From Candidatus Aenigmatarchaeota archaeon (GTDB lineage: Archaea; Aenigmatarchaeota; Aenigmatarchaeia; QMZP01; QMZT01), in contig WVZE01000001.1 of NCBI GenBank assembly GCA_011772645.1, forward strand, positions 17,888 through 81,887: a DNA stretch of 64,000 nt. The letters run 5' to 3'. Positions within the stretch are counted from its first letter, which is position 1. Each line of letters starts with the position of its first letter. A program made the translations under genes and the position numbers. Positions 5,110 to 48,434 of this stretch are shown piece by piece. The notes under the pieces are model-generated. The model made no database searches and was not told the DNA's origin. It saw only the letters and a list, made by a program, of their open reading frames with translations.

Positions 5110-5392
5110 TAGTGGTAGGAACACGCCATCAGTGGATGCTGATCAACCAGAAGGTTTATCCACAATCCCTCCTCCACTCCGCTACCCTTCAAGCGTTGTT
5201 AATATAACTTAGGGCTGCCACCTTCCGGTTCTGACCCGGTTCATCACATTAAAAACCCTGAAGGACAGAGCTTCTCAGTTGGGAATATGGGCCTTTTGGT
5301 TTCTCAGTATCGCCTTTAGGCTTCGACTCCGTCATGAAGGCGGTTTACGGTTACAGGAGACGCCTGACCTCCCAGTCTAGTCCCTACCATCT
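5110..5392 (-). ncRNA. Signal recognition particle RNA (archaeal 7S/SRP RNA)
   Basis: The minus strand reads 'GGGAGGTCAGGCGTCTCCTGTAACCGTAAACCGCC' (5'/Alu-like domain). It also reads 'GGGTCAGAACCGGAAGGTGGCAGCCCTAAG', the helix-8 region with a GGAA tetraloop (compare 4.5S 'GGTCAGGTCCGGAAGGAAGCAGCC'). The 5' 'GGTAGGGAC' can pair with the 3' 'GTTCCTACC'. A TATA-like 'TTTTAAA' lies about 25 nt upstream (5412..5418) and an oligo-T follows the 3' end. There is no credible ORF in this 360-bp gap. The ends are approximate (+/-10 nt). Confidence 0.85.
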
Positions 5393-7435: not shown

Positions 7436-8521
7436 ATGAAACTGGAGGACGTCCTTGAAGATGCGTTTTTTGTGAAGCCGGATGATTCTCTTTCCCACGT
7501 GGTGTCAATGATGGCGAAGGAGAAGAGGTATGAGGCGTTCGTATCCGAAGGGGGTTTCAAAGGAATAATCACACTTGATGACATTATAAAGAGGAGGTTA
7601 ACAAGCCCGCAAAACGTTAAGGTATCGAATTTCATGAAACCGATAAACCCCTTTGAAGTGGACTCTCCTGTTGAGGATGTAATAAACTATATGCTTGTGA
7701 GCGAACATAGGTCGCTTCCGATCAAGAAGGGAGGGAGGATATTCGCGGTCACGAAACCCAAACTTCTGAATTTTATCAAGGACGAAGTTTTTGAGGGAAA
7801 GAAGGCGAAAGATGTGATGCAGTTTCCTTATTCAGCAGACACGAACGACACGCTCTCAACCGTTATTTCCGTAATGAAGGAGACGGGCCTCGACAGGATT
7901 CCGATACTTGACGAGAAAGGGGGGTTTGTTGGTCTGGTGGACAGCGTCAGCCTTGCGAATGTATTAACTGATAAAGGAAGGTCCAAGAGAGGTGAAAGGT
8001 TCGGTGATAAGGAGAGGTTGGAGGAAGTGGGGATAGAAAGATTCTTACGGAAAGAGATATTAAAGGTGAACCCGGAAACCGAGCTCAAGCGAATAGTCAG
8101 GGACATCTCGAAAGAGGGGGTTTGCGCGGTAATCGTGGAGGGAGGCGAGAAATTCCTGGGCATGATCACTGTCAGGGACCTTTTCAAATTGATAGGGAAG
8201 TCCCTGGAGACCGTCTACATAAGGATTAGCGGTCTGGACATGGAGGACGATTTCATAAAATCCAAGATAGATGAGATGGTCGACAACACCATCACCAAAC
8301 TCCTGAAATCCCTTGAGGTGAACTACGTGGCGATACATGTTGAAACGCATAAAAGCGGAGGTAAAAGAAAGAAATACTCTGCTCAGGGGAGGTTCGTTAC
8401 CGATAAGGGGAACTTCCACGCGAGCGATCACGAGTGGGACCCAACGAAAGCGATGAAGCTGTTTCTTTCGAAGATAGAGAGGGAAGTTCACAAAAAGGTG
8501 GAGATGGAGAGGGGATATTAG
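7436..8521 (+). CDS. Four-CBS-domain protein with a C-terminal HPF/RaiA (S30AE)-like domain
   Basis: Four CBS repeats are visible (for example 'GIITLDDIIKR', 'GLVDSVSLANVL', 'GMITVRDLFKLI'). The last ~110 aa, 'VYIRISGLDMEDDFIKSKIDEMV...VNYVAIHVETHKSGGKRKKYSAQGRFVTDKGNFHASDHEWDPTKAMKLFLSKIEREVHKKVE', follow the beta-alpha-beta-beta-beta-alpha pattern of ribosome hibernation factors. It starts 4 nt after the S17e stop. Confidence 0.6.
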   Translation: MKLEDVLEDAFFVKPDDSLSHVVSMMAKEKRYEAFVSEGGFKGIITLDDIIKRRLTSPQNVKVSNFMKPINPFEVDSPVEDVINYMLVSEHRSLPIKKGGRIFAVTKPKLLNFIKDEVFEGKKAKDVMQFPYSADTNDTLSTVISVMKETGLDRIPILDEKGGFVGLVDSVSLANVLTDKGRSKRGERFGDKERLEEVGIERFLRKEILKVNPETELKRIVRDISKEGVCAVIVEGGEKFLGMITVRDLFKLIGKSLETVYIRISGLDMEDDFIKSKIDEMVDNTITKLLKSLEVNYVAIHVETHKSGGKRKKYSAQGRFVTDKGNFHASDHEWDPTKAMKLFLSKIEREVHKKVEMERGY

Positions 8522-9990
8522 AATATCTTCTTCCCCGCGAAGAAATCGTTTATCTTCGAATCCAGGTCCTTTATTTTCACGCGTATCTGTTTCATTGAAT
8601 CGCGGTCGCGGAGGGTTACATCTTTCCTTTTTAACGAGTCGTAATCAACCGTTATCGCAAGAGGAACGCCCAGCTGGTCGTAGATCACGTAGCGCTTCCC
8701 GATCGACTGCTTCTCGTCGTATTTCGTTTCGAATTTAGTTTTGAGAAGGTCGTGTATCTCCCTCGCCTTCTTGCCGATCCCGTCTTTCCGGACGAGCGGG
8801 AGTATCACGATGTCAAGGGGCGTGAGCTCTCTTGGGAACTTTAGGACGGGCTTTCCTTTCCTTTCGGAAAGGGAATTTTCTAGAACCGCGTAAAATATGC
8901 GATCGAGGCCCATGGAAAGCTCGAACACGTGAGGAACGAATTTTTCATCGTCCTCAACTACTGAAAGATCCGCCTTCGAAACCTTCGAATGCGAGGAGAG
9001 GTCGAAATCCGTCCGGTAGTTGCAGGCCACGAGCTCCAGCCAACCAACGCTCGTGTTAACCTCGAAGTCCCATGTTTCTTTCGAATAAAAAGCTTTCGCT
9101 TTATCCTCGAGTTCGCGGAAGCGAATATTTTTAGGATCGAGCCCGGCCTTCTCGAAGAATTCCTGGGTGATCGCCAGATAGTAACCTATGAGTTTTCCTG
9201 AAATTATTTTATTCTTAACCGCTTCGCCCAGGCTGACAGGTTCGATCTTGTCCTTTCCGAGGAGTTTCAGGCGAAGCTTCTTGTTTTTGTACTTTTCGAA
9301 TTCCGGGAAATCGTTGATTTTCTTGGGGTTGAAGAAGACCTCGGTCTCGAACTGGCTGAATTCCCTGGTCCGGACAAGGCCCTGGCGAGGGGAGATTTCA
9401 TTCCTGAAGGCCCTCCCAACCTGCGATATCGCCAGGGGTAGGGAAACCCTGGAAGTCTTATATATCTTCTGGAATGCGGTGAATATGTTCTGGCATGTCT
9501 CCGGCCGAAGGTAGGCGTTGTATTCCTTCGAGAGCGGGCCTATCGAAGTCCCTATCATCATGTTGAATTTTTTCACGTTCGAAAGCCCTCCTTTGCATTC
9601 TGGACAGGTGATCTTGTGTTTCTTTATTAAATCGTTGAATTCCTTTGTATCAAGGGCTTCTGGAATTATTTTTCCTGTTTTCCCTTCTATCAGTTTGTCT
9701 GCACGGAAAATCTTGTGGCATTTCTTGCATTGTACGAGAGGGTCGGCAAAGCTCTTCAGGTGTCCTGAAGCCTCGAAGTTCTTTTTCGGGAGTATCAGGC
9801 AGCCCTCGATTTCGAGAGAATCGGTTTTTCGGACGATCTCCCTCCTCCATAGGTCTATTATCCTCCTTCTCAGTATCGTCCCCAAATGTCCGAAATCCCA
9901 GAATCCCGAGGGAGGGGAATGTATTTCGGCTGAGGGGAAGAAGAGACCTCTCTGATCAGCAAGTTCATGTATTCTCTCGAATTTTCCCAT
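8518..9990 (-). CDS. glyS: Glycine--tRNA ligase (archaeal/eukaryotic-type class II)
   Basis: 490 aa. 'RGLFFPSAEIHSPPSGFWDFGHLGT', 'YLRPETCQ', 'GRAFRNEISPR..L.R.REF' and an anticodon-binding C-terminus identify it. Confidence 0.9.
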   Translation of the reverse strand: MGKFERIHELADQRGLFFPSAEIHSPPSGFWDFGHLGTILRRRIIDLWRREIVRKTDSLEIEGCLILPKKNFEASGHLKSFADPLVQCKKCHKIFRADKLIEGKTGKIIPEALDTKEFNDLIKKHKITCPECKGGLSNVKKFNMMIGTSIGPLSKEYNAYLRPETCQNIFTAFQKIYKTSRVSLPLAISQVGRAFRNEISPRQGLVRTREFSQFETEVFFNPKKINDFPEFEKYKNKKLRLKLLGKDKIEPVSLGEAVKNKIISGKLIGYYLAITQEFFEKAGLDPKNIRFRELEDKAKAFYSKETWDFEVNTSVGWLELVACNYRTDFDLSSHSKVSKADLSVVEDDEKFVPHVFELSMGLDRIFYAVLENSLSERKGKPVLKFPRELTPLDIVILPLVRKDGIGKKAREIHDLLKTKFETKYDEKQSIGKRYVIYDQLGVPLAITVDYDSLKRKDVTLRDRDSMKQIRVKIKDLDSKINDFFAGKKIF

Positions 9991-16433: not shown

Positions 16434-16605
16434 CGGACCTGGTGGGAATTTCGAAGCCAGCGGTTGCTGGATGGCTGGAAACCAAACTTAGGTGGACGGC
16501 TTAATTCGATATGATCAAGCCGTCATGTGCTCTTTGGTTTCCAGTTTCGAACCCACGACCCCTCGCTTAGGAGGCGAGTGCTCTATCCAACTGAGCTACA
16601 GGTCC
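16434..16605 (-). tRNA. tRNA-Arg (anticodon CCU) interrupted by a 98-nt intron in the T-loop (near position 59/60)
   Basis: Exon 1 (16605..16546) reads GGACCTG TA GCTC AGTTGGATA GAGC A CTCGC CTCCTAA GCGAG GGGTC GTGGG TTCGAA. The intron spans 16545..16448. Exon 2 (16447..16434) reads T CCCAC CAGGTCC G. All four stems are Watson-Crick after intron removal. No CCA is encoded. Confidence 0.85.
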
Positions 16606-16642: not shown

Positions 16643-18112
16643 TTATAAATTGAAGAGGTTTTTAAAGAAATTCATCACGTTTTCTATAAATGCAGAAAAC
16701 CAGTTCTCATCTCTCTTTGAGATTATCCTGCCTGTCGTTACCATCCCCGCTGTTTCGTTCTCTGGTTCAGAAACATCAGAGGTTTCGTTCTCCATTGTTT
16801 GATTTTCCGGTTCCAAAGATTCCTTGATGAATATTTCCCTTGTTATATCATGTTTTTTGTTTTCGCACCATATCCTAACCCTCAGCTTGTATTCACCTGG
16901 CTCCGTGTCTTCCGCAATTCTGTTGCTGAGGGTCACGAGGGCGGAGGAATTCCCTGGTATGCTCGCATTTCGCCTGTTTGCATCCCATGTGTTTAACCAC
17001 TCGCTGCCGTCAAATCCGAGGGAGAGTGGTTTTTTCCCTTCGTATATGTAAGAGTAGAGAGTGTAATCTCTCTGGTAATCAAGGATGTTACTCATCCTGA
17101 CGTATATTTCAATTTCCTCGTCCTTGCTGATTTCGTAGGGGAAATAAATTATTTCAAACTCCTCCTCTTCATCTTCAGAGGTGCATTTGGGGCAGGGAGC
17201 GCAGGAACAGGTTGTTTCCCCATTTTCACAGGGAGGGCATTGCTCCGGGTCAGTTTCTCCACCCTTTACAACGATCAGTTTCTCGGCGAGGTCATTCGAA
17301 TGGTCAGAATCGTTGCATGGGAATTCCCTTATCTCAGCCACTATGTAATACGCCTCGGACCCTCCGATTTCTTTGGGCGTCCACTGTCTTGATATGTTTT
17401 TGTTGCAGGTCATGTTCTGGGTTGTGGTGTAGTTTGATCTCACCATTCTTCCGAATAGGTCCTCTATCCAGTATTCTATGCTCACTTCCTTTACTTCCTG
17501 ATCACATTCTCTGTCTTCAACACTTAGATGATAGTTTTGTCTCTCGCCTGAATTGAAAATCAGATCGGACGCTATGGAAAGCGAGAGATCGCAGGTCCCG
17601 TTGGTGACGTTGGTCTGGTTTGTTTCGTTGGTTTCATTCGTGTCTTTCGGGAGACATGTGTTTGGTAGACCTGGAGTTGAAATGTTCTGAAGAATAAAAG
17701 TCGAATTGCATAGTCCGTATGATCTATTAGTTTCAGAAGAGTTGTATACTATTTTTTGTAGGAGCGATGAACCGTTGTAGAGCGAGATGTTATCCCCGCT
17801 GTTTCTGAGGCTCATTCTGTTGTTTTCGAAAACCCTAACTTCTGAATCCCATATCTCTGCAAAAGCACTCGAGTTCTTCGTGATTATAATGAATTCATCC
17901 TTCCCGATAGAACCGTTCAGGGTTATTGGATTTTCACCAGTATCCACCGTTATGTTCTCTAAGGATAAATTAACATAGCTTGTGATCTCGATCCATTCGG
18001 AACAATCCCTGCAATTGTCATCAGGATCAGGCATGAACTCGTTTATCGTGATTGCCTGGACACTGTAAGCCGTCAAGAACAGCGAGATTACGAATACCAA
18101 ATAAACCCTCAT
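16643..18112 (-). CDS. Secreted lamin-tail-domain (LTD) protein, rich in Cys and N-glycosylation sequons
   Basis: It has a signal peptide ('MRVYLVFVISLFLTAYSVQA'). The LTD-like segment is 'ITINEFMPDPD...EWIEI...LRNSGDNISLYN'. It contains many NxS/T sequons ('NETNETNQTNVTNGT'), a Cys cluster 'CPPCENGETTCSCAPCPKC' and an acidic run. Confidence 0.6.
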   Translation of the reverse strand: MRVYLVFVISLFLTAYSVQAITINEFMPDPDDNCRDCSEWIEITSYVNLSLENITVDTGENPITLNGSIGKDEFIIITKNSSAFAEIWDSEVRVFENNRMSLRNSGDNISLYNGSSLLQKIVYNSSETNRSYGLCNSTFILQNISTPGLPNTCLPKDTNETNETNQTNVTNGTCDLSLSIASDLIFNSGERQNYHLSVEDRECDQEVKEVSIEYWIEDLFGRMVRSNYTTTQNMTCNKNISRQWTPKEIGGSEAYYIVAEIREFPCNDSDHSNDLAEKLIVVKGGETDPEQCPPCENGETTCSCAPCPKCTSEDEEEEFEIIYFPYEISKDEEIEIYVRMSNILDYQRDYTLYSYIYEGKKPLSLGFDGSEWLNTWDANRRNASIPGNSSALVTLSNRIAEDTEPGEYKLRVRIWCENKKHDITREIFIKESLEPENQTMENETSDVSEPENETAGMVTTGRIISKRDENWFSAFIENVMNFFKNLFNL

Positions 18113-18816: not shown

Positions 18817-21429
18817 TTACCCGTTCTTTATCTTGGCCTGCGCTGCAGCGAGTCTAGCAATCGGGACCCTGAAAGGCGAGCAGGAAACGTAATCAATTCC
18901 CAACTTATGGCAGAACTCGACAGAACTCGGTTCTCCGCCATGTTCACCGCAAATCCCTATTTCTATCTTGGGGTTTGTTTTTTTTCCAAGTTTCACGCAT
19001 GTCTCCATGAGCGATCCCACTCCCTCCCTGTCCAGAACTTGAAACGGGTCTTTCTTCAAAACACCCTTCTCTATGTATTTTGGTATGAATTTGCCGGAAT
19101 CATCCCTTGAAAATCCATAAGTGGTCTGGGTCAGGTCGTTCGTTCCGAACGAGAAGAAATCCAGGACCTTCGCCAGCTCATCCGCCACAACACACGCCCT
19201 CGGGAGTTCAATCATGGTTCCTATCTTGTATTTTACGTTAACCCTTGATTTTCTGATCAGGTCCTTCGCTATCCTTTCTATGACCTCCCTCATGAACTTT
19301 GCTTCTTCAAGACTCCCCAGAACAGGGATCTCTATTTCAGGGAAGGCCCTGCCTCCTGACCTGTTGATCTTGATTGCCGCCTTTATTATTGCCTCAACCT
19401 GCATTTCAGAGATCTCAGGATATACCACCCCCAGCCTGCAGCCTCTGAAACCCAGCATGGGGTTAAACTCGCTCAAGAAGTTTATTTTCTTTTTGAGTTT
19501 TTGATAGCTTACCTTCATCTTCCTTGCAAGTTTTCTTATCTCCTTATCTTCCTTTGGAAGGAATTCGTGAAGCGGCGGGTCAAGCAGACGTATGGTAACG
19601 GGTAAACCGTTCATTTCTTTGAATATCCCCAGGAAATCATTCATCTGCATGGGAAGGAGTTTCTTAAGCGCATTCCTTCTTCCCTTTTCGTCTTCGGCAA
19701 GTATCATCTCCCTGACGGAATCTATACGGCCTCCCTCAAAAAACATGTGCTCCGTTCTCGCCAAGCCGATTCCTTCAGCCCCAAAGTCTTTCGCCCTTTT
19801 CGAATCCTCAGGCGTGTCGGCATTGGTCCTTACTCCCAGTCTTCTGAATTCATCGACCCATTTCATTAACGTTCTGAACTCACCTTTCATTTCAGGATCC
19901 ACAACAGCGATTTTACCCTCAATCACCTCTCCCGTGCCCCCGTCCAGCGTGATCCATTCTCCTTCCCTAATTTTAATTTCCCCTGCCGTCAATGTCTTCT
20001 TCTTCTCATCAATAATGATGTCTTCACAGCCTGCCACACAGCAGATCCCCATTCCACGCGCAACCACAGCGGCGTGTGACGTCATTCCTCCTCTCGCTGT
20101 AAGTATTCCCTTCGAGACGGACATGCCCCCGATGTCTTCAGGGGAAGTCTCTTCCCTTACGAGCACGACATCCTTCCCTTTGGACGCAAGCTCTTCTGCC
20201 CTGTCTGCTGTGAAACACACTATTCCCACCGAGGCCCCAGGCGATGCCGGGAGTCCTTTTGCTATTGCCCTTGCTTTCTCCTTTTCCTTTGGGTCAAGCT
20301 GTTTATGAAGCAAGTGGTCAAGCTGAGCGGGATCTATCCTCATTATAGCCTCTCTTTTGCTTATCATCCTCTCTTTCACAAGATCTACCGCAATTTTCAC
20401 CGCGGCCTGCGCTGTTCTCTTTCCTGCTCTTGTCTGGAGGACGTACAGTTTTCCCTTCTCTATCGTGAATTCCAAATCCTGCATGTCTCTGTAGTGTTTA
20501 TCAAGCAGCTTGTAAACCTTCATTAGCTTCCTGTAAGCTTTCGGAAGGTCTTTTTTTAGGTTAAATATGGGTTTCGGTGTTCTTATTCCCGCAACGACGT
20601 CTTCACCCTGGGCATTAATGAGGTATTCGCCGTAGGGCGTGTTCTCGCCGGTGGAAGGATCTCTTGTGAACCCCACTCCGGTTGCAGAGTCTTTCCCCAG
20701 GTTTCCGAAAACCATTGCCTGAATGTTGACCGCTGTTCCCAGATCTTCTGGTATGTTGTTGAGTTTCCGATAGGTTCTCGCGCGTTTGTTGTCCCAGGAA
20801 CTGAAAACAGCATCTATTGACATCTTCAGTTGTTTCTTGGGGTCTGAAGGAAATTCCTTGCCTGTCTCTCTCCTGACGAGATTTTTGTATTCACTAACGA
20901 TAATTTTAAGTTCCTCGACTTTAAGGTCGGTGTCTTTTCTGCCCCTCTTGCGTTTGTTAAGGATTTTCTCGAACTTTGCATGATCCACCTCAAGAACCAC
21001 GTCACCAAACATCTGTATGAACCTTCTGTAGGAATCCCATGCAAACCTGGGATCTCCGCTTTCCTTTTCTATCCCCTTCACCGTCTTATCGTTTAGGCCG
21101 AGGTTAAGGACGGTGTCCATCATGCCCGGCATGGAGACGGGAGCACCGGATCTCACAGAAATTAACAGCGGTCTTTTTTCGTCCCCAAATTTCCTTTTCA
21201 TTTTTCTTTCCAATTTCTTTAGGTTTGATTCAACCTGTTTCTCAAGATATCTGGGGTATCTTTTGGTTTTTATGAAATCCATGCACACGCGGGTTGATAT
21301 CGTAAAACCGGGAGGTACTGGCAAACCTATCCTGGTCATTTCTCCCAGGTTCGCTCCCTTTCCTCCGAGCAGTTTTCTGCTTTCCTTCCCCCTTTCCCCG
21401 AAGAAGTAAACCATCTTCATGACATTCAC
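18817..21429 (-). CDS. ppdK: Pyruvate, phosphate dikinase
   Basis: 870 aa. 'LLGGKGANLGEM', the phospho-His region 'GGMTSHAAVVARG' and the PEP-utilising C-terminus 'GIGLARTEHMF...FFSFGTNDLTQ' identify it. Confidence 0.95.
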   Translation of the reverse strand: MNVMKMVYFFGERGKESRKLLGGKGANLGEMTRIGLPVPPGFTISTRVCMDFIKTKRYPRYLEKQVESNLKKLERKMKRKFGDEKRPLLISVRSGAPVSMPGMMDTVLNLGLNDKTVKGIEKESGDPRFAWDSYRRFIQMFGDVVLEVDHAKFEKILNKRKRGRKDTDLKVEELKIIVSEYKNLVRRETGKEFPSDPKKQLKMSIDAVFSSWDNKRARTYRKLNNIPEDLGTAVNIQAMVFGNLGKDSATGVGFTRDPSTGENTPYGEYLINAQGEDVVAGIRTPKPIFNLKKDLPKAYRKLMKVYKLLDKHYRDMQDLEFTIEKGKLYVLQTRAGKRTAQAAVKIAVDLVKERMISKREAIMRIDPAQLDHLLHKQLDPKEKEKARAIAKGLPASPGASVGIVCFTADRAEELASKGKDVVLVREETSPEDIGGMSVSKGILTARGGMTSHAAVVARGMGICCVAGCEDIIIDEKKKTLTAGEIKIREGEWITLDGGTGEVIEGKIAVVDPEMKGEFRTLMKWVDEFRRLGVRTNADTPEDSKRAKDFGAEGIGLARTEHMFFEGGRIDSVREMILAEDEKGRRNALKKLLPMQMNDFLGIFKEMNGLPVTIRLLDPPLHEFLPKEDKEIRKLARKMKVSYQKLKKKINFLSEFNPMLGFRGCRLGVVYPEISEMQVEAIIKAAIKINRSGGRAFPEIEIPVLGSLEEAKFMREVIERIAKDLIRKSRVNVKYKIGTMIELPRACVVADELAKVLDFFSFGTNDLTQTTYGFSRDDSGKFIPKYIEKGVLKKDPFQVLDREGVGSLMETCVKLGKKTNPKIEIGICGEHGGEPSSVEFCHKLGIDYVSCSPFRVPIARLAAAQAKIKNG

Positions 21430-22536: not shown

Positions 22537-22947
22537 ATGAAATATAAATTCATAGACGATCTGACATCGGACGTTCTTTTTGAAGCCTACGGGAAGGATC
22601 TGAAAGATCTGTTTACAAATGCTGCTCTCGCCCTCTTCAGCGTGATATGCCAGATAGGAAAGGTAAAGCCAAGAATTAAGAAGGAGGTTGAGGTTGGAGG
22701 GGAGGACACTAAAGATCTTATGTTTAACTGGCTTCAGGAACTCATAGTTCTTGTTGACACAGAGGAGATGTTCTTTTCAAAATTCGAAGTGAGAGAAATC
22801 GATGAGAGACATCTGAAGGCCAAATGTTATGGCGAAGGGATAACAAAGGGAAAGAGTGGGACTTTGGTGAAGGGCGTGACCTACCATAAGTTCGGGGTAG
22901 AAAAAACGGACAAAGGCTATAAGGTAACGGTCAGTCTGGATATATAG
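22537..22947 (+). CDS. Archease (RtcB activator)
   Basis: 136 aa. 'KFIDDLTSDVLFEAYGKDLKDLFTNAALAL' and the C-terminal 'VKGVTYHKF' are archease-like. It is convergent with rtcB. Confidence 0.8.
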   Translation: MKYKFIDDLTSDVLFEAYGKDLKDLFTNAALALFSVICQIGKVKPRIKKEVEVGGEDTKDLMFNWLQELIVLVDTEEMFFSKFEVREIDERHLKAKCYGEGITKGKSGTLVKGVTYHKFGVEKTDKGYKVTVSLDI

Positions 22948-22954
22948 CCGGAAT

Positions 22955-24388
22955 CTATCCCTTCAGAACTCCTACCGGAACCGTTCGTGCAACCTTCAAA
23001 GAGATTCCCATGCCGTGAACACTCTCTATCACGTCATCCACGTTCTTGTAAGCCCCCGGGGCTTCCTCTGCCAAAACCTTTGGGTGGGTTGACTGTGTGA
23101 CAATTCCTTTATTCGCAAGTTCTTCCTTGACCTTTCCACCCCAAAACTTACGAATGGCAGCGTGTCTCGACATAGCGCGCCCCGCTCCGTGAACCGTTGA
23201 CCCAAACGTTTTCTCCATTGATTTGTCTGTTCCCCTGAGAATATAAGAAGAGGTTCCCATAGTTCCCGCAATAAGGACCGGGTCGTCTGGGAAGGAACGT
23301 GTCGAACCCTTCCTGTGAACGAAAAGCTTTCTCTTTTCCCCTTCCACAACATGATTCTCGAGCTTAACCACGTTGTGGCATAACCCGTATATCGTGTTTA
23401 AATCCATCGATTCCCAGTCCTTTCCGAATATCTTTTTAAAGGTTTCGCGTATCCAGTGTGTCATCACGATTCGGTTTGTGAAGGAATAGTTCACAGCGCA
23501 CACCATTGCTGAAAAATAATCCTTCCCTTCCTGTGATTTCGAAGGGGCGCACGCAAGCTGACGGTCAGGCAGCCAAATGTTGTATTTTTTTACCGCTTGT
23601 TCCTGAATCTTCAGGTAATCGCTCGCTACCTGATGTCCAAGCCCGCGGGAGCCGCAGTGAAGCATGATCAAGATCTGATCGGGATTTTGAATTCCCCATT
23701 TGTTAGCGAATTCCTGGTCATAGATATCGGAAACCCTCTGTATCTCGAGGAAATGGTTTCCTGCTCCAAGGGTTCCCAGCTGTTGCAGACCGCGTTTCTT
23801 GGCGAGATCGGAAACTTTCGAGGAATCCCCTCCTTCCATATGTCCTCTCTCTTCCATGTTTTCCCTGTCCTTCGAAACCCCGTATCCGTTCTCTATGGCC
23901 CAGTCTATTCCTTTTTCGAGGACCTGATCTAACTGATCATTCGTTAGCTTCAATCTCCCTTTCGCTCCCACCCCGCAGGGTATGTTCTTGAACAATGTTG
24001 AAACCAACTCGTTCAATTTCGGTTTAATCTGGTCGTAAGTGAGGTTCGTTCTTATGGAATTCACCCCGCAGTTTATATCGAAACCGCAGAGTCCCGAGGA
24101 TATTATTCCATCTTGGGAATCGAACGCGCTCACAGCCCCCATCGGAAGACCGTATCCCCAGTGCATGTCCGGAAGCCCTATAACCGGCCGGATCACTCCG
24201 GGGAGGCAAGCGACGTTCGTCAGCTGCTGGATAGCGGCATCTTCTATAGCATCGACTACCCTTTTGTTTCCTATGACCTTCGCGTCCACATTCATTCGTT
24301 CCCTAGATCCCTTGGGAAGAAGCCATTCGTATTCGCCCAACTTTTTCAATTTCTCCTTCATCTCAAACCTCCATTTGACCCGCGACAT
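22955..24388 (-). CDS. rtcB: RNA-splicing ligase RtcB
   Basis: 477 aa. 'PDMHWGYGLPMG', 'DINCGV', 'GAGNHFLE', 'HCGSRGLGH' and 'HGAGR' are canonical RtcB motifs. Confidence 0.95.
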   Translation of the reverse strand: MSRVKWRFEMKEKLKKLGEYEWLLPKGSRERMNVDAKVIGNKRVVDAIEDAAIQQLTNVACLPGVIRPVIGLPDMHWGYGLPMGAVSAFDSQDGIISSGLCGFDINCGVNSIRTNLTYDQIKPKLNELVSTLFKNIPCGVGAKGRLKLTNDQLDQVLEKGIDWAIENGYGVSKDRENMEERGHMEGGDSSKVSDLAKKRGLQQLGTLGAGNHFLEIQRVSDIYDQEFANKWGIQNPDQILIMLHCGSRGLGHQVASDYLKIQEQAVKKYNIWLPDRQLACAPSKSQEGKDYFSAMVCAVNYSFTNRIVMTHWIRETFKKIFGKDWESMDLNTIYGLCHNVVKLENHVVEGEKRKLFVHRKGSTRSFPDDPVLIAGTMGTSSYILRGTDKSMEKTFGSTVHGAGRAMSRHAAIRKFWGGKVKEELANKGIVTQSTHPKVLAEEAPGAYKNVDDVIESVHGMGISLKVARTVPVGVLKG

Positions 24389-43005: not shown

Positions 43006-43172
43006 GGGCTCGTAGCTCAGCCTGGTTAGAGCGTCGGTCTTATATGTCCGACAGGCGTGATGTCTGTTAAGCTTTGGCCAAGAGAGCCGGAGGTCTGGGG
43101 TTCGAATCTGGAAACCACCAGCGGGTTTCCAGCCATCCTGCCACCAATGTTTCGGAAATCCCCACGAGCCCA
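43006..43172 (+). tRNA. tRNA-Ile (anticodon UAU) with two introns: 40 nt in the anticodon loop (37/38) and 52 nt in the T-loop (near 59/60)
   Basis: The exons read GGGCTCG TA GCTC AGCCTGGTTA GAGC G TCGGT CTTATA [43045..43084] A GCCGG AGGTC TGGGG TTCGAAT [43108..43159] CCCCA CGAGCCC A. The acceptor, D and T stems are perfect. The anticodon stem has two terminal G-U pairs. The body closely resembles archaeal tRNA-Ile. The exact splice junctions are ambiguous by 1 nt. Confidence 0.75.
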
Positions 43173-43206: not shown

Positions 43207-44457
43207 ATGAAGATATTCTCTGACCTTCACATCCACTCAAGGTTCTCCAGAGCGACCAGTAAGGAACTGAACATAGAAAATCTCGTGAAATACGCAAAAA
43301 TGAAAGGTTTGAATCTTCTTGGTACGGGAGATTTCACGCATTCTCTCTGGCTGAAAGAGTTAAAGGAGGATCTCAGGGAAGACGGTTCCGGGATTCTTAA
43401 AAGCAAGGGGGGTTTTAGCTTCCTGCTCTCGGCAGAGGTTTCAAACATCTATACCCAGGACAACAGGCAAAGGAGAATCCACAACGTAATTCTCGCCAAG
43501 GATTTCGAAACGGTTGAGCAGATAAATGATTGGTTATCCAAGAAGGGGAGGCTTGATTACGACGGCAGGCCTATATTCGGTTTCACATGCACAGAACTCG
43601 TAGAGAACATCGTGGGTATATCAAAGGATTGTATGATAATACCAGCCCATATCTGGACACCCTGGTTTTCGCTGTTCGGTTCGAAATCCGGATTTGATCG
43701 CATTGAGGAGTGTTTTCAGGATCAAACCAAAAACATATTCGCCCTGGAAACCGGGCTGTCCTCTGACCCTGAGATGAACTGGAGGCTGTCCTCCCTGGAC
43801 AGGTATGCTCTGGTTTCATTTTCCGATCTTCATTCGTTCTGGCCATGGAGAATCGGAAGGGAAGCCACGGTTTTTGAGATGAAGGAACTGACATATGATA
43901 ATTTGGTAAAAAGCATAAGGACGAAAGAGGGTTTGGTGGAGACAATCGAAGTCGATCCTTCCTACGGTAAATATCATCACGACGGACACAGAGGTTGTGG
44001 GGTTTCGCTGAGTCCTGAAGAGGCAAGGAATTCGAATAACCTCTGCCCGGTTTGTAAACGCCCGCTGACGATCGGGGTTTTACACAGGGTTGAGGAACTC
44101 GCCGACAGGGATAAAGGATTCGTTCCGAAGGATTCAAAACCCTTCCGTTCGCTGATCCCGCTGTCCGAGATCATATCGATCGTCCTTGGCTCACCGGTAA
44201 ATTCGCGGAGGGTGTGGGAGGAATACAACAAGCTTGTAAACGCCTTTGGATCCGAGTTCAACGTCCTGATGGAGGCGGGCAGAGAGCAGTTGATTAACAT
44301 CTCGAATGAAAGAATGGTTGATCTGATCTTGAATGCAAGATCCAGGAACATAAGAATAAATGCGGGTTACGATGGGGTTTACGGAGAACTCGTCATGAAG
44401 GAAGACGAAACCGAGGGGTTGGAAAAACCCCAGAAAACCCTGAAAGACTTCAGTTAG
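43207..44457 (+). CDS. endoQ: Endonuclease Q (PHP-like N-terminal domain plus zinc finger; cleaves 5' of deaminated bases)
   Basis: 'DLHIHSRFSRATSK...GLNLLGTGDFTH', 'IPAHIWTPW', 'GLSSDPEM', 'SFSDLHS', 'GKYHHDGHRGC' and 'CPVCKRPLTIGVLHRVEELAD' are collinear with Pyrococcus EndoQ, as I recall that sequence. Confidence 0.75.
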   Translation: MKIFSDLHIHSRFSRATSKELNIENLVKYAKMKGLNLLGTGDFTHSLWLKELKEDLREDGSGILKSKGGFSFLLSAEVSNIYTQDNRQRRIHNVILAKDFETVEQINDWLSKKGRLDYDGRPIFGFTCTELVENIVGISKDCMIIPAHIWTPWFSLFGSKSGFDRIEECFQDQTKNIFALETGLSSDPEMNWRLSSLDRYALVSFSDLHSFWPWRIGREATVFEMKELTYDNLVKSIRTKEGLVETIEVDPSYGKYHHDGHRGCGVSLSPEEARNSNNLCPVCKRPLTIGVLHRVEELADRDKGFVPKDSKPFRSLIPLSEIISIVLGSPVNSRRVWEEYNKLVNAFGSEFNVLMEAGREQLINISNERMVDLILNARSRNIRINAGYDGVYGELVMKEDETEGLEKPQKTLKDFS

Positions 44458-45392
44458 AACCCTGTCACCGTCAGGGAGGTCGCCGCATCTGTAAAGTATT
44501 CGTATGTCGCCCTTATCTTTAAGGTTTTTTTCAGTATGTTGATTCCTGTCCATTTATCGCCTTCGGAAAACAGTGAAATCTCCCCGTCGCAAACCACAGT
44601 TCTCGACCGGCCTTCCCATAAATCAACTTCGTCGTACATCCCCACTTCGCAGTCCTTCAGGTTCATTCCGGATTCTGGGTCTGTCTCCAGAAAGACCTTG
44701 TTCCAGTTTACCGAATCATCACAGGTTGGATAGCAGGCAACTCCTCCCCCGGCGTTTTCGATGGATATGGATATCGGAAACTCTACTTTGTTTGTGTCTT
44801 CGATGTATCTGACAGGGCTCCTCATCTGTATGCTGAGTTTGACCGGCCCTGCCGTGAGGCTGGTGGTTTCACTCGGAAGCGATCTCCCCTGCGCCTGTAT
44901 CGATCTCAATTCGCTCTCTGATATTATCGTAACGGATTTTACTATGTTGCTCTCGTAATCATAATACACCCTCAGGCTGGGGTTGAACGTTATTTTCGAG
45001 TTTCTCGGTATATCCTCGGGTGCGGAACATTTCCATATGCAGGTCTTTGATTCCCCTGTTGTTCCCGCCCGGGGGTCAGGAGCGAGAAACCTTTCTATCA
45101 CTTCCGAGCATTCTGTTTTGCAGGAGATTTCAAGTCCTCTGTTTTCATAGGTGGCTCCTATGTTGGAAAGCTCGAACCTAACATTCCCTGCATCAACAGA
45201 GCCGGTGTTTCTTATCATCAGCTGAAGGTTAAAGGGCTCCCCGGAATACATTTCAGAGGGATTCGATACAAAGCTCTCTATAACTATCCCGTTTCCGGAA
45301 GTTGTTTGCTGTCCCACACAGCCTGATAACAAAACTAAACAAAAAACGAGCAAAGTTAACTGGGCCGGTTTCGTCATAATTTTATATTGCAT
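44454..45392 (-). CDS. Secreted lipobox-type surface protein, paralogue 1 of 4 (two beta-sandwich-like halves)
   Basis: The signal and lipobox are 'LLVFCLVLLSGC'. It shares family motifs with the next three genes: 'GIVIESF', 'IRNTGSVDA', 'LAPDP', 'RVYYDYES', 'ENAGGG' and the C-terminal 'ATYEYFTDAATSLTV'. Confidence 0.6.
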   Translation of the reverse strand: MQYKIMTKPAQLTLLVFCLVLLSGCVGQQTTSGNGIVIESFVSNPSEMYSGEPFNLQLMIRNTGSVDAGNVRFELSNIGATYENRGLEISCKTECSEVIERFLAPDPRAGTTGESKTCIWKCSAPEDIPRNSKITFNPSLRVYYDYESNIVKSVTIISESELRSIQAQGRSLPSETTSLTAGPVKLSIQMRSPVRYIEDTNKVEFPISISIENAGGGVACYPTCDDSVNWNKVFLETDPESGMNLKDCEVGMYDEVDLWEGRSRTVVCDGEISLFSEGDKWTGINILKKTLKIRATYEYFTDAATSLTVTGF

Positions 45393-45407
45393 ACGAGGCT
45401 TTTATCC

Positions 45408-46385
45408 TTATCCGCTCGGCAGAACCCTTATCTGAATGGTTTTATCTATGAAGTAACCATATTCCGCTGTCAGCCTTATGTTCTTCTGGGTCAGCCTTTC
45501 AGGAATCTCGTGGACCTGAATCTTGCAGGAGATAGTCTGGGACTTGCCCATTATCAGCAAGATCTCTTCCGTTTCTTCGCAGCTGCCCTCCTCGAAGTTC
45601 ATTCCTTCGGGCAACTCTATGTATAATCTGAACTGGTTCCACATGGATCCACCTTCTGTGTATTTCCTGCAGCTGTCACTGTTCTCGCAGACCGTTCCCC
45701 CTCCGATGTTATCTATCTTTATGACCATCGGGAACGTCAGGGTTTGTCCGTAGGTTCTTATCGGACTCCTGGTCTCTATGTCCAAGGATACGGGAGAGTC
45801 TGATTCGCTCGTTGTTTCCACGGGCAGGCTTTTGCCCTGGTTCTGGATCACCCTCAGCTCGTCCTTGGGAACGATCGTGACCGTTTTTATGAGGAATGAT
45901 TTGTAATCATAGAAAACGCGAGCCCGCGGTCTGTAATCGGCGTAAAGGCCGGGCGGAACATCGGGGGCGACATACCCCCACGTACATATTTTATCGCTGC
46001 CCTCTATTCCTGCGGACGGGTCCGGAGGCAGCAACACGATACCTCTCTGATCGTATTGGCATTCCCTTTCGTAGGGGAAAACCTCCTGGTTTCTGGGGTT
46101 CTTCCTTGCATCGTCCCTTCCTTTCCACAGCTGATCAAGGCCAAGGAGCTCTGCATAACCGTTCTCCGCTTTCACGCTACCCGTGTTTCTGAATTTAAGA
46201 ACGAAGGTTACCTCCTCATTCGAATACACCTCGCTTAATTCGGGGTCTGTCCTGAAGCTCTCTATAACTATTCCCGATCCGACCGGCGTCTGAGAATCGA
46301 ACGGCACGCCAGGCATCACGCACCCCGAAGCTAGGATTAAAGAAAAGACCATAAAGCCCGAGCAGATAATTTTTTGGCTACTCAT
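45408..46385 (-). CDS. Secreted lipobox-type surface protein, paralogue 2 of 4
   Basis: The signal and lipobox are 'FSLILASGCVMPG'. Family motifs are 'GIVIESF', 'FRNTGSVKA', 'LPPDP', 'RVFYDYKS', 'DNIGGG' and 'AEYGYFIDKTIQIRV'. Confidence 0.6.
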   Translation of the reverse strand: MSSQKIICSGFMVFSLILASGCVMPGVPFDSQTPVGSGIVIESFRTDPELSEVYSNEEVTFVLKFRNTGSVKAENGYAELLGLDQLWKGRDDARKNPRNQEVFPYERECQYDQRGIVLLPPDPSAGIEGSDKICTWGYVAPDVPPGLYADYRPRARVFYDYKSFLIKTVTIVPKDELRVIQNQGKSLPVETTSESDSPVSLDIETRSPIRTYGQTLTFPMVIKIDNIGGGTVCENSDSCRKYTEGGSMWNQFRLYIELPEGMNFEEGSCEETEEILLIMGKSQTISCKIQVHEIPERLTQKNIRLTAEYGYFIDKTIQIRVLPSG

Positions 46386-46419
46386 AATTATATAATTGTC
46401 GAAAAATAAATAAAAAGAG

Positions 46420-46427
46420 GTTTAAAC
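46420..46427. promoter_or_regulatory. GTTTAAAC TATA/BRE-like element upstream of paralogue 2
   Basis: It lies 35-42 nt upstream of the start at 46385 and overlaps the stop codon of paralogue 3. Confidence 0.3.
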
Positions 46428-47402
46428 GAACTCCTCGAATCCTTTGACTGTTATCTGAGTTGCTGCATCCACGTAGTATATGTAACCCAGCTTTATCTCG
46501 AAGTTTTTCTTGACCTTGTTCGTGGGTGGCTGCGTCACTTGGAATTCGCATGTTACGTCCGTGTACTTTCCGTTCCAAACCCTAACGTATCTTCCGAATG
46601 CCGGAGTTGACAGGAATGGCGGCAGGTTTTCATAGATGCCTGTCCCGAATTGGATCTGTCTTGGACAGTCACCGACCGGTATAACACCATCAGGCCATAC
46701 AACCTCGATAGCGACCGGGTAATCCCTTCCGAATATCTGTCCTCCTCCCGTGTTGTCTATCCTTATCTGGAGCTGGAATTTGGATTCCCTCCATTCCCTT
46801 GCCTTCACGAACTGTCCTGTATCAACCGTAACACTCAGCGGGCCGGATGTTAGTACGGTGGCTTCTGTGTCCAGGGTTCCTCCTCCCTGTACCACTCTTC
46901 TGAGTTCCTCGGCCGTCACAAACCACACTGGTTTGGTCGCTCGCGTCTCATAGTAATAGTAAATCCTTGCAATTGGTTCGTATGTCATTCTCTGGTTTCT
47001 GGAAAGTGTTGGTGTTATCACGTCCCAGTCTGCCCTTCCCCTTCCGCCTTCTGTCTGCATTTCCGGATCAGGAGCAAGCAGCAAACCAAGGTCCCTGTAA
47101 ACATCTCCGTACAAATTCCATTCGGTCGTGTCTATTCCTGTAAGCTCCGCGACTGTCGGAGCGTTGTTGTAGTCTCCCCTGTTGACAACTTCCAGATGGA
47201 GACTTACTGGTTCGTCCGATTCGATGGGCGTTGTCTGGCCTAATGTTGGTTGGAAGATTTCAACAAAAATTCCTTGTCCTCCTCCTGTTGCTGGTCCAAC
47301 ACCAGGCATGGTACAACCAGAGGTTACGGTAACTGCAGCAATGAATAACAGCAAAAAGAACTTCACGTTCCTTCCGAATGCTGTTCCCATCATCTTTATC
47401 AT
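46422..47402 (-). CDS. Secreted lipobox-type surface protein, paralogue 3 of 4
   Basis: The signal and lipobox are 'IAAVTVTSGCTMPG'. Family motifs are 'GIFVEIF', 'VVNRGD', 'LAPDP', 'RIYYYYET', 'DNTGGG' and 'LGYIYYVDAATQITV'. Confidence 0.6.
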   Translation of the reverse strand: MIKMMGTAFGRNVKFFLLLFIAAVTVTSGCTMPGVGPATGGGQGIFVEIFQPTLGQTTPIESDEPVSLHLEVVNRGDYNNAPTVAELTGIDTTEWNLYGDVYRDLGLLLAPDPEMQTEGGRGRADWDVITPTLSRNQRMTYEPIARIYYYYETRATKPVWFVTAEELRRVVQGGGTLDTEATVLTSGPLSVTVDTGQFVKAREWRESKFQLQIRIDNTGGGQIFGRDYPVAIEVVWPDGVIPVGDCPRQIQFGTGIYENLPPFLSTPAFGRYVRVWNGKYTDVTCEFQVTQPPTNKVKKNFEIKLGYIYYVDAATQITVKGFEEFV

Positions 47403-47450
47403 TTTAATATTTAACCTGTTACGCTTATAAATTTAATTTGTGTTCAGAAA

Positions 47451-48434
47451 TCAATCCAGCTCGATCTCCGGCTCTATCGTTAATCTGATCTTCTTGGTGA
47501 ATTTGTAGGAATACTTGATTTTCGAGGTGAGCTGGTAGGTTTTCTCCTGGGTTATCCACCCAGGATTTCTTGGTTCTATTTCGCACGAGAATTTCGGCGA
47601 GGTTTTTCCGATAAGTTTCAGTCCTTCTTCATCTATTTTTTCCTTGCATTTTTCACATCCTGTTACCTCCTCTTCGCCTGTTGCCTCACTTTTGGCACAA
47701 CCTATTTCTATATCGTCCTTCACTATCGTATTTCCTTCAAGTTCTCCTCTTCCCCTGTTCTCGACCCAGAAGGTCATCATGCCCTTCCCAGTTGATTTTA
47801 CATCCGCATCCGGTCTTATGTCCACCATTATCGGCTGGTCAGGAGCCTCTATGTACGATTTTACAGGACCTTCGCCCACGACTATGGTTCCCTTCTCGCT
47901 GAACGTCTTGCCCTGGGAAATCAGGTTCTCGAGCTCCTGCTGGTTCACGAAACTCACGGAAGATGTGGTGTGTGTTGTGTATGTATAACTAACAAGAACC
48001 CCGACATCGCAGGGTGTTTTTATCCTCATTGAGTTCGCCTTCATCTTCCAGTCGACTATAGCGGTCGATTGCGGATACATCTTATCGATCGTGCATTTTT
48101 TGTCCTGGAAGCTCCCCCCGGTGCATATGCTTCCCGTTGTTTCGAATATCCCGCAGTCGTCATACAGCTCTATCTCCACGGTTTCCTGTGGGTCGCTCTC
48201 GGGCTTCTGGAGGTTCTGGACGTACGCGCGAAGCGTTAGGGTCTGCCCGGACCTTATCGTGTGGGACGGGATGGCCTGCAGACTCTGTATGAAAACAACG
48301 TCGTGTCTGAACTCCTCCACGTTTGGTCCGAAGAGGTCGGAAATTATTGGTATCCTGAAATCCGTTCCGGGTATTACGCATCCAGAAATCATCAGCAGTG
48401 GTACCAGGAGGGTTATCAGCAAAGGTTTCCTCAT
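47451..48434 (-). CDS. Secreted lipobox-type surface protein, paralogue 4 of 4 (most divergent)
   Basis: The signal and lipobox are 'LVPLLMISGCVIPG'. It has the same length and two-half layout, with 'VSYTYTT', 'QQELENLISQGKTF' and 'VENRGRG'. It is Cys-rich. Confidence 0.55.
   Translation of the reverse strand: MRKPLLITLLVPLLMISGCVIPGTDFRIPIISDLFGPNVEEFRHDVVFIQSLQAIPSHTIRSGQTLTLRAYVQNLQKPESDPQETVEIELYDDCGIFETTGSICTGGSFQDKKCTIDKMYPQSTAIVDWKMKANSMRIKTPCDVGVLVSYTYTTHTTSSVSFVNQQELENLISQGKTFSEKGTIVVGEGPVKSYIEAPDQPIMVDIRPDADVKSTGKGMMTFWVENRGRGELEGNTIVKDDIEIGCAKSEATGEEEVTGCEKCKEKIDEEGLKLIGKTSPKFSCEIEPRNPGWITQEKTYQLTSKIKYSYKFTKKIRLTIEPEIELD

Follow-up and report, generated by a model that had tools for sequence, protein, structure and literature searches.

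Transposed tRNA introns were reportedly described in the Thermoproteales by Fujishima et al. in 2010. There, similar introns are found in non-cognate tRNAs and are read as products of transposition, although the mechanism is unknown (PMC4090602, PMC4033280). In ARMAN-2 (Candidatus Micrarchaeum), the pre-tRNA-Cys carries a 13-nt intron between positions 59 and 60 (59/60) with a relaxed helix-bulge-helix (hBH) motif, which is cut in vitro by the archaeon's own EndA, and the 59/60 introns of this organism are cut by an epsilon2 EndA (PMC3239211). Here, we examined two introns in the T loops of a tRNA-Ile(UAU) and a tRNA-Arg(CCU) gene on a 64-kb stretch of archaeal DNA (hereafter, the window), which equals contig JABAOC010004231.1 of a metagenome assembly and whose proteins are named Candidatus Aenigmarchaeota by NCBI, i.e., the host does not belong to the Thermoproteales. 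With a probability of roughly 0.8, both introns belong to one homologous family of bulge-helix-bulge (BHB) type tRNA introns at 59/60, present across Aenigmarchaeota-type tRNA genes, with a recent gain in tRNA-Arg and an older presence in tRNA-Ile.

According to the reviews PMC4090602, PMC4033280, and PMC4390854, the introns of the Thermoproteales and those described here have in common the occurrence of similar sequences across different isoacceptors, the BHB type, the non-canonical positions, and a gain that is read as late and as due to copying from one tRNA gene to another. They differ in lineage (TACK there, the DPANN phylum Aenigmarchaeota here), in that all members found here are at 59/60, and in that syntenic empty sites are seen here, along with one orthologous site at which the intron has been replaced or has decayed. 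The introns of ARMAN-2 resemble ours in their DPANN host, the 59/60 site, and the relaxed motif with a good 3' bulge and a loose 5' site, and a tRNA-Ile(UAU) interrupted in the anticodon loop is likewise found in ARMAN-2; in contrast, its 13-nt tRNA-Cys intron is without internal hairpins, and no sequence family shared among its T-loop introns is described in PMC3239211. The spread of introns is in itself unsurprising to specialists, being the same phenomenon as in the Thermoproteales in a different phylum; the precedent that an earlier note on this DNA had invoked is a real one according to the reviews PMC4090602 and PMC4033280. The family adds a second, unrelated lineage (DPANN) to tRNA intron transposition. 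Our literature searches, whose coverage was incomplete, turned up no account of this family or of T-loop introns spreading in Aenigmarchaeota.

Two homologous T-loop introns

The two tRNA genes and their introns are laid out as follows.

43006-43172, + strand: tRNA-Ile(UAU) gene, exons 43006-43044, 43085-43106, and 43159-43172 (ARAGORN on the in-silico spliced sequence)
43045-43084, + strand: 40-nt anticodon-loop intron of tRNA-Ile (ARAGORN intron call; coordinates from blastn)
43107-43158, + strand: 52-nt T-loop intron of tRNA-Ile, site 59/60, subfamily beta
43108-43132, + strand: 9-nt inverted repeat with 100% complementarity, forming the conserved hairpin CTGGAAACC / GGTTTCCAG around a 7-nt loop (candidate helix h')
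43133-43138, + strand: CCATCC block after the hairpin
16434-16605, - strand: tRNA-Arg(CCU) gene, exons 16605-16546 and 16447-16434 (ARAGORN on the spliced sequence)
16448-16545, - strand: 98-nt T-loop intron of tRNA-Arg, site 59/60, subfamily alpha
16475-16544, - strand: conserved hairpin of the Arg intron, 12 bp (16533-16544 with 16475-16486)
arms 16495-16505 / 16514-16524, - strand: inner 11-bp hairpin of the Arg intron, inside the extended stem
16457-16470, - strand: a further, small hairpin, CCAGC-AACC-GCTGG, seen in the folds and characteristic of subfamily alpha

When both T-loop inserts were cut out in silico, perfect cloverleafs were obtained, called by ARAGORN as tRNA-Ile(TAT) and tRNA-Arg(CCT), and the predicted spliced junction was GGTTCGAA|TCCC in both. 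The T-loop introns of 52 nt and 98 nt at one and the same position, as first proposed from the sequence, are therefore borne out, the site being 59/60. Because a T stands at each end, the junction has a one-T ambiguity, so that Ile coordinates of 43108-43159 (a one-base shift) are as valid as those given above; the bulge geometry picks 59/60. The 40-nt anticodon-loop intron of tRNA-Ile, whose position was read by eye as 37/38, stands outside the shared T-loop family, and in relatives it is orthologous and fast-evolving. The Ile anticodon UAU is unusual in archaea, in which AUA is mostly read by a modified CAU. Neither gene was called by ARAGORN on the raw window, even with anticodon introns allowed, and the Rfam tRNA match covered only the 5' two-thirds of tRNA-Arg (16548-16605). 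Neither intron matched a family of Rfam 15 (group I/II introns and C/D box sRNAs among them) at E ≤ 1. Standard finders thus catch none of the two tRNA genes of the window, and Aenigmarchaeota metagenome-assembled genomes (MAGs) look tRNA-poor unless T-loop introns are modelled.

Sequence likeness between the two introns extends over their whole length. GGTTTCCAGCCATCC occurs in the window at exactly two places, 43124-43138 (+) and 16469-16483 (-), and CTGGAAACC is found at 43108-43116 (+) and 16536-16544 (-); the gapped pattern CTGGAAACC...GGTTTCCAGCC had two matches in the window against none expected from shuffles. A global alignment of the introns scored 41.4, compared with 15.4 ± 4.0 (largest, 30.4) for 2000 dinucleotide shuffles, none of which reached the observed score (z = 6.4), and the best local block scored 16 against 6.4 ± 1.1 (largest, 13). 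Both introns contain, in common order, one nucleotide, the hairpin CTGGAAACC-loop-GGTTTCCAG, CCATCC, a second short segment (CCAGCAACCGCTGG in Arg, CCTGCCACCAATG in Ile), (C/T)TT, CG(A/G)A, and two bulge nucleotides. The 24-nt core of hairpin and CCATCC is identical between them, and the tails are alike as well; in tRNA-Ile, the hairpin adjoins the 5' splice site on its 3' side. The blocks quoted in the earlier note were thus all found where it had placed them, and their statistical significance, which it had set as a test beforehand, was confirmed; three blocks in the same order is exact as a description, but the likeness spans the whole intron and not these blocks alone.

The main difference between the two is that the Arg hairpin holds 52 nt (16484-16535) in place of the 7-nt loop of the other copies; the extra hairpin that had been noticed inside the conserved stem is real. 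The inserted sequence and the Ile anticodon intron had no relatives among the fetched loci, so the idea that these are repeated modules was dropped. Both loci were seen in independent assemblies: the Arg intron with its insertion recurs in JABAOF010107054.1 (L085), an independent assembly from a sister sample, and the tRNA-Ile locus recurs in a Logan contig.

The homology was further examined with a covariance model (R1) for which only five copies from elsewhere were used (L019, L029, L042, L049, and L065) and which contains no window sequence, because a MAFFT alignment that included the Arg copy misplaced its insertion. R1 matched the Arg intron with 77.1 bits (E 1e-20, 16442-16556) and the Ile intron with 74.8 bits (E 6e-20, 43096-43164), and found no third copy in the 64-kb window. 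The shuffle test and this model from other genomes together show homology between the Ile and Arg T-loop introns from end to end. No further tRNA gene was found in the 64 kb by R1, Rfam, a GGTTCRAA scan, or ARAGORN run with introns permitted, so that both tRNA genes present carry a T-loop intron of the shared kind.

The intron family and the history of its two sites

Further copies were sought in 185,579 species-representative genomes and in the JGI metagenomes with the pattern CTGGAAACC-gap-GGTTTCCAGCCAT; 36 stretches were listed per collection, and among the metagenome matches listed the window's own contig was absent and sister contigs of its assembly were present. The exact archaeal core matches were L019, L029, L042, L049/L055, L061, and L065, together with 13 in one MAG, JZ-3_201901_bins_3 (11 T-loop introns, nine loci), and every archaeal match among the matches listed sits in a tRNA T loop. 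Non-archaeal pattern matches (Bordetella and others) were unrelated palindromes that matched both strands and were discarded, and viral contigs had no match to the family. The copies outside the window and the JZ-3 MAG, with their host genes, are listed below.

L019 (= L061), uncultured archaeon MAG, JABAOF metagenome: Leu-UAA, by eye
L029, Aenigmatarchaeota RS_17_31: probably Ser-CGA, by eye (ARAGORN gave Gly(tcc) with an odd intron)
L042, estuary sediment: Trp-CCA, ARAGORN
L049 (= L055), JGI metagenome: Leu-CAA, by eye
L065, same assembly as the window: probably Gly-UCC, by eye (ARAGORN gave Arg(tcg))
L078, CP070809.1, 846-kb contig: Ile-UAU, found by synteny

In several Aenigmarchaeota-type MAGs and metagenome contigs, no fewer than seven distinct tRNA genes thus harbour the family at 59/60; Ile-UAU, Arg-CCU, and Trp-CCA among these hosts are ARAGORN calls, and the remaining ones were read by eye. 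Copies with the architecture of the window introns (class A) number six further distinct ones, eight in all, each at 59/60. After in-silico splicing, ARAGORN called a tRNA in three of the six other class-A copies and in 10 of 10 JZ-3 genes. The last two C of CCATCC, which the search pattern left free, are kept in all eight pattern-found copies (the window two included) and also in the JZ-3 MAG; the CP070809.1 orthologue has CCTTCC. Further copies, found by the pattern and by synteny, do exist in related archaea. Tetranucleotide frequency was tried as a means of assigning L019, L061, and L065 to the window genome and was not discriminating. L065 also holds, at 9801-9920 (+), a tRNA-Thr(CGU) (by eye) with an unrelated 39-nt 59/60 intron, the end of which (TGAA) complements T-loop TTCA.

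Two subfamilies were distinguished by comparison of the 31 columns left free by the search pattern. Subfamily alpha has the tail CCAGCAACCGCTGG and subfamily beta the tail CCTGC[C/A]ACC. The window Ile and Arg introns are alike in only 15 of 23 free columns, whereas the Arg intron agrees with the tRNA-Leu intron L019 in 22 of 24 and with L042 in 21 of 24, and the Ile intron with L049 in 26 of 30 and with L029 in 25 of 30. Judged by these columns, the window holds one alpha and one beta member, and its two copies are not each other's closest relatives. The low identity between them therefore speaks against a recent duplication of one from the other, be it from Ile to Arg or from Arg to Ile; the family is an older one with two branches, each intron being closer to introns elsewhere (22/24 and 26/30).

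The tRNA-Arg(CCU) gene lies between genes for a lamin-tail-domain (LTD) protein and a MinD-like ATPase, an arrangement kept in four relatives, in all of which the T loop is uninterrupted.

JABAOF010001663.1: LTD identity to the window 68%, T loop uninterrupted
ERZ23498683: LTD identity to the window 64%, T loop uninterrupted
JABAOF010002730.1: LTD identity to the window 58%, T loop uninterrupted
CP070809.1: LTD identity to the window 42%, T loop uninterrupted

The empty sites (L080, L081, L082, and L083) read GGGGG or CGGGG, TTCGAAT, and CCCCC or CCCCG, and removal of the window Arg intron at 59/60 gives exactly the orthologues' loop with no leftover repeat. The sample of the second assembly of the filled allele (L085) also holds an empty-site relative. 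This comparison of loci is direct evidence for the Arg intron being a lineage-specific, precise gain after the split from the closest sampled relatives. Together with the at least seven host genes, the empty Arg sites support an intron family spreading between tRNA genes, as had been suggested. They also make a clean comparison of filled and empty tRNA-Arg(CCU) genes in related populations from the same samples; the tRNA-Leu intron of the same environment (22/24 free columns) is a candidate for the donor type. For the question of how protein-spliced tRNA introns reach new positions and new genes, this locus offers a clean natural case of gain.

With GTGGG/CCCAC, tRNA-Arg of the window has the same T stem as the L019 tRNA-Leu, and its four orthologues all have GGGGG or CGGGG instead. 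That the intron might have brought the entire T arm along was considered and set aside as uninformative: the Arg exons differ at ~10/74 positions from the closest orthologue (alignment A4), a divergence that predicts one compensated pair anyway. A D-loop intron of ~40 nt, AG(C)TTTCGAA..., occurs in L081 (7546-7677) and L083 (~7570-7690) and in neither the window nor L080; introns have therefore been gained or lost at other positions of tRNA-Arg too.

The tRNA-Ile(UAU) gene lies between a thermosome and an EndoQ-family gene, in the same arrangement on seven related contigs, and every orthologous tRNA-Ile(UAU) gene examined has a T-loop intron of some kind.

CP070809.1 (L078): EndoQ identity 71%, same beta intron, R1 57.5 bits
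JABAOF010001663.1 (L075, 9660-10000): EndoQ identity 81%, unrelated intron of the ACAC...GTGAAWT type
Logan contigs (L086 376-700 / L087): EndoQ identity 81%, unrelated intron of the ACAC...GTGAAWT type
ERZ27248349 (L076 9727-10000 / L077): EndoQ identity 76%, 13-nt mini-intron
RS_17_31 (L088 317-700): EndoQ identity 73%, 62-nt composite intron

In L078, which belongs to a distant relative, the hairpin has changed from CTGGAAACC/GGTTTCCAG to GTTGAAACC/GGTTTCAAC by two compensatory pair changes, and the loop TTCAAA faces TTTGGAA. The beta intron at this site is, to judge from these orthologues, old and under structural selection, and it is replaced or shrunk in other branches; the contrasts among orthologous sequences indicate that intron turnover at the site is rapid. 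A 24-nt module, GGAAAACCAGCAGCT[A/T]ACGCCTGC, is common to L088 609 (+) and L029 ~2332 (-) of the MAG RS_17_31 (JAGMCY01), occurring within one MAG in the tRNA-Ile T-loop intron and in a different intron of another tRNA. The 12-mer TTTCAAGAAGAA of the L086 intron was otherwise seen only in the JZ-3 module described below.

Predicted splicing motif and the case against it

The ends of both introns can pair with the T loop of their host tRNA, forming the following elements.

43153-43156, + strand: CGGA, intron strand of the 4-bp central helix H, pairing with T54-G57 (43101-43104)
43157-43159, + strand: 3-nt bulge A,A|T60 of Ile, directly after CGGA
16450-16453, - strand: CGAA, intron strand of the central helix H, pairing with T54-G57 (16551-16548)
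16449-16447, - strand: 3-nt bulge A,T|T60 of Arg, directly after CGAA

In the minimum-energy fold, all seven class-A copies folded (7/7) have a 5-bp T stem, a helix between T-loop positions 54-57(-59) and the intron, a bulge, and the hairpin. The central helix stacks on the T stem, its intron strand being CGAA, CGGA, or TGAA; the 3' splice site lies within the 3-nt bulge (two intron nucleotides and T60) in 7/7 folds; and the 5' splice site, which follows A59, is flanked by the central helix and the conserved 9-bp hairpin, the latter beginning one nucleotide past it. The terminal TTCG(G)AAAT, already noticed as common to both introns, is indeed present and is explained by this pairing: it is the complement of the palindromic T-loop TTCGAA and forms the central helix. 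When A58, A59, and I1 were forced to be unpaired, L065 kept the architecture with a strict 4-bp helix at a cost of 0.9 kcal/mol, and five other copies did so at 1.4-2.3 kcal/mol. In the five-sequence alignment, 98% of the cells pair, compared with 16-59% in slid controls; helix H pairs in 100% of the cells, with G57:C replaced by A57:U in L065 and a second such change in L078. Compensatory changes were seen in the T stem, the central helix, and the second hairpin, the A:U pair of which becomes U:A or U:G in other copies. The unrelated L075 intron has the same end geometry at minimum energy, and the unrelated tRNA-Thr intron of L065 has it only in a constrained fold 2.0 kcal/mol above the minimum.

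Both inserts are best described as archaeal BHB (protein-spliced) tRNA introns with a relaxed hBH-type motif, and folding, covariation, and sequence suggest that both are spliced. EndA variants with broad specificity have been described in DPANN archaea (PMC5829648); an enzyme of this kind would cut both splice sites, and RtcB with archease would join the exons. The genes for the latter two lie in the window and would act in trans.

22955-24388, - strand: RtcB, presumed exon ligase (Pfam PF01139, E 3e-155)
22537-22947, + strand: archease, RtcB cofactor (Pfam PF01951, E 5e-38)

Genes for the CCA-adding enzyme, LigT/ThpR, and Pus10 are also inside the window. All five are encoded here, as had been pointed out, but they are ordinary housekeeping genes and give no evidence for intron spread.

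Several points weigh against this interpretation of the introns and of their history. The motif is not a strict helix-bulge-helix-bulge-helix (hBHBh') one: A58 and A59 can pair, in which case the helix has 5-6 bp, and the strand returning from the hairpin has ~20 extra nucleotides, giving a three-way junction. For the window Ile copy, the constrained fold (ddG 1.0) is an unrelated structure without T stem or helix H. EndA was looked for without success among the window open reading frames (ORFs) scanned with Pfam and in the fetched loci, and no search was made beyond these. The search pattern demanded the hairpin and CCAT, so that their invariance in the pattern-found copies is by construction, and the scan counts are counts among the matches listed. 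The polarity of the Arg gain is based on parsimony and identity ranks and not on a tree.

Routes of spread and other features of the loci

The JZ-3 MAG (JAVZYR01) bears on how copies may spread. It is a hot-spring Aenigmatarchaeota MAG with ~35-60% identity to the window in conserved proteins (tblastx segments), and at least 11 of its tRNA genes, on nine loci, have 59/60 introns of 117-306 nt that consist of a few repeated hairpin modules.

JZ-3 loci: L007, L008, L020, L021, L024, L030, L031, L033, and L038
JZ-3 T-loop intron examples: L024 189-378 and 850-972; L021 4110-4414

The CTGGAAACC/GGTTTCCAG+CCATCC module abuts the 3' splice site in these introns and is sometimes tandem, with a 65-nt period. 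It is probably, though not certainly, inverted relative to the tRNA, an orientation read from the CCATCC flank, of whose six nucleotides the pattern had fixed four. Modules occur also in the D-loop introns of two tRNA genes (L024 688-728; L033 7290-7345) and as a ~160-200-nt insertion in the 5' part of the 23S rRNA gene (L038 368-527), where the large-subunit rRNA match at 1-714 uses 714 nt to cover model positions 1-505 only. This recalls the BHB introns in the rRNA of the Thermoproteales (PMC4496867), a likeness that applies to JZ-3 only and not to the window.

For the family as a whole, we favour copying at the DNA level between tRNA genes, which would proceed via the near-universal T-arm sequence (GGTTCGAAT-CC). 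The intron's own tail, being complementary to the T loop, would rebuild a spliceable motif in any T loop, which explains the use of one position in many tRNAs. The rule is a simple one: the intron carries the T-loop complement, and any T loop that it enters would become spliceable. In L065 and L078, TTTGAA or TTTGGAA stands opposite the loop TTCAAA; the shared tail has therefore presumably been kept for pairing.

The same tail invites the objection that 59/60 introns were forced to resemble one another by T-loop pairing and a hairpin. Pairing with the palindromic loop does dictate the terminal TTCG(G)AA, and unrelated 59/60 introns (L075, L086, and tRNA-Thr of L065) also end in TGAA; however, this constraint reaches only the last ~6 nt, and those unrelated introns fold into the same geometry without any internal family sequence. 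Given the identical 24-nt core, the similar tails, the 0/2000 shuffles, and R1 E-values of ~1e-20 for both introns, chance or convergence is barely credible. That one or both loci are decaying pseudogenes whose inserts are never removed would agree with the failure of standard tRNA finders to call either gene, but is extremely improbable: the exons give perfect cloverleafs, both genes are at the syntenic position of the only tRNA-Ile(UAU) or tRNA-Arg(CCU) gene seen in relatives, the splice-site helix and the hairpin have been kept by compensatory changes over long divergence, and a T-loop intron is present in all orthologous tRNA-Ile(UAU) genes examined.

Other routes of movement would leave different traces at the junctions. 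If the intron were a DNA transposon similar to a miniature inverted-repeat transposable element (MITE) that inserts at TTCGAA, the terminal TTCGAAAT would be a target-site duplication; TTCGAA does flank the insert on both sides in most copies, and the probably opposite orientation and the tandem duplication of the JZ-3 hairpin+CCATCC module point to DNA-level events. In L065 and L078, however, the loop TTCAAA and the end TTTGAA/TTTGGAA are reverse complements and not direct repeats, and these complementary ends rule out both a target-site duplication and an origin by restriction and ligation at TTCGAA. Moreover, removal at 59/60 leaves exactly the orthologue's loop with no residual repeat, the hairpin is internal and terminal inverted repeats are absent, and no archaeal copy was found beyond T loops among the matches listed and none in viral contigs, which makes a transposon of this kind very improbable. 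Spread at the RNA level, in which an excised intron is inserted in reverse into a T loop, reverse transcribed, and recombined into the gene, would account for the precise insertion, the complementarity of the tail to a near-universal T loop, and the confinement of the copies to T loops among the matches listed. We nevertheless consider it improbable: neither the window nor the fetched loci contain a reverse transcriptase (Pfam, gene lists), an inverted JZ-3 module cannot come from reverse splicing, and we know of no reverse action of EndA/RtcB.

Alternatively, the T-loop introns of Aenigmarchaeota could be assembled from small mobile hairpin modules that move at the DNA level, in either orientation, from intron to intron of stable-RNA genes, rRNA as well as tRNA. 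The conserved CUGGAAACC/GGUUUCCAG+CCAUCC hairpin would then be the recognition element of a mobilising activity. We regard this as unlikely; compatible with it are the probably inverted module, the 65-nt tandems, and the 23S insertion in JZ-3, as well as the 45-nt nested insertion in the Arg intron, the shared module of RS_17_31, and the replacement at the tRNA-Ile site. If it were true, the modules would represent mobile elements of a new kind that survive only where host splicing removes them.

Several other features were recorded in the window and its relatives. Beside tRNA-Arg, at 16643-18112 (-), a 489-aa protein with a weak lamin-tail-domain match is encoded; its named homologues are all Aenigmarchaeota, and it is therefore a lineage-specific protein. 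In L081 (1427-5278), a pyruvate phosphate dikinase of 1283 aa has faint intein/LAGLIDADG Pfam matches, and its window orthologue (18817-21429) has 870 aa and no such matches. An archaeal signal recognition particle (SRP) RNA is present at 5115-5387 (-) of the window (Rfam RF01857, 153.8 bits). At 44454-48434 (-), the window has a row of four ORFs (312-327 aa) that look like paralogues and have no Pfam match, an arrangement that is kept in L075 and L076.

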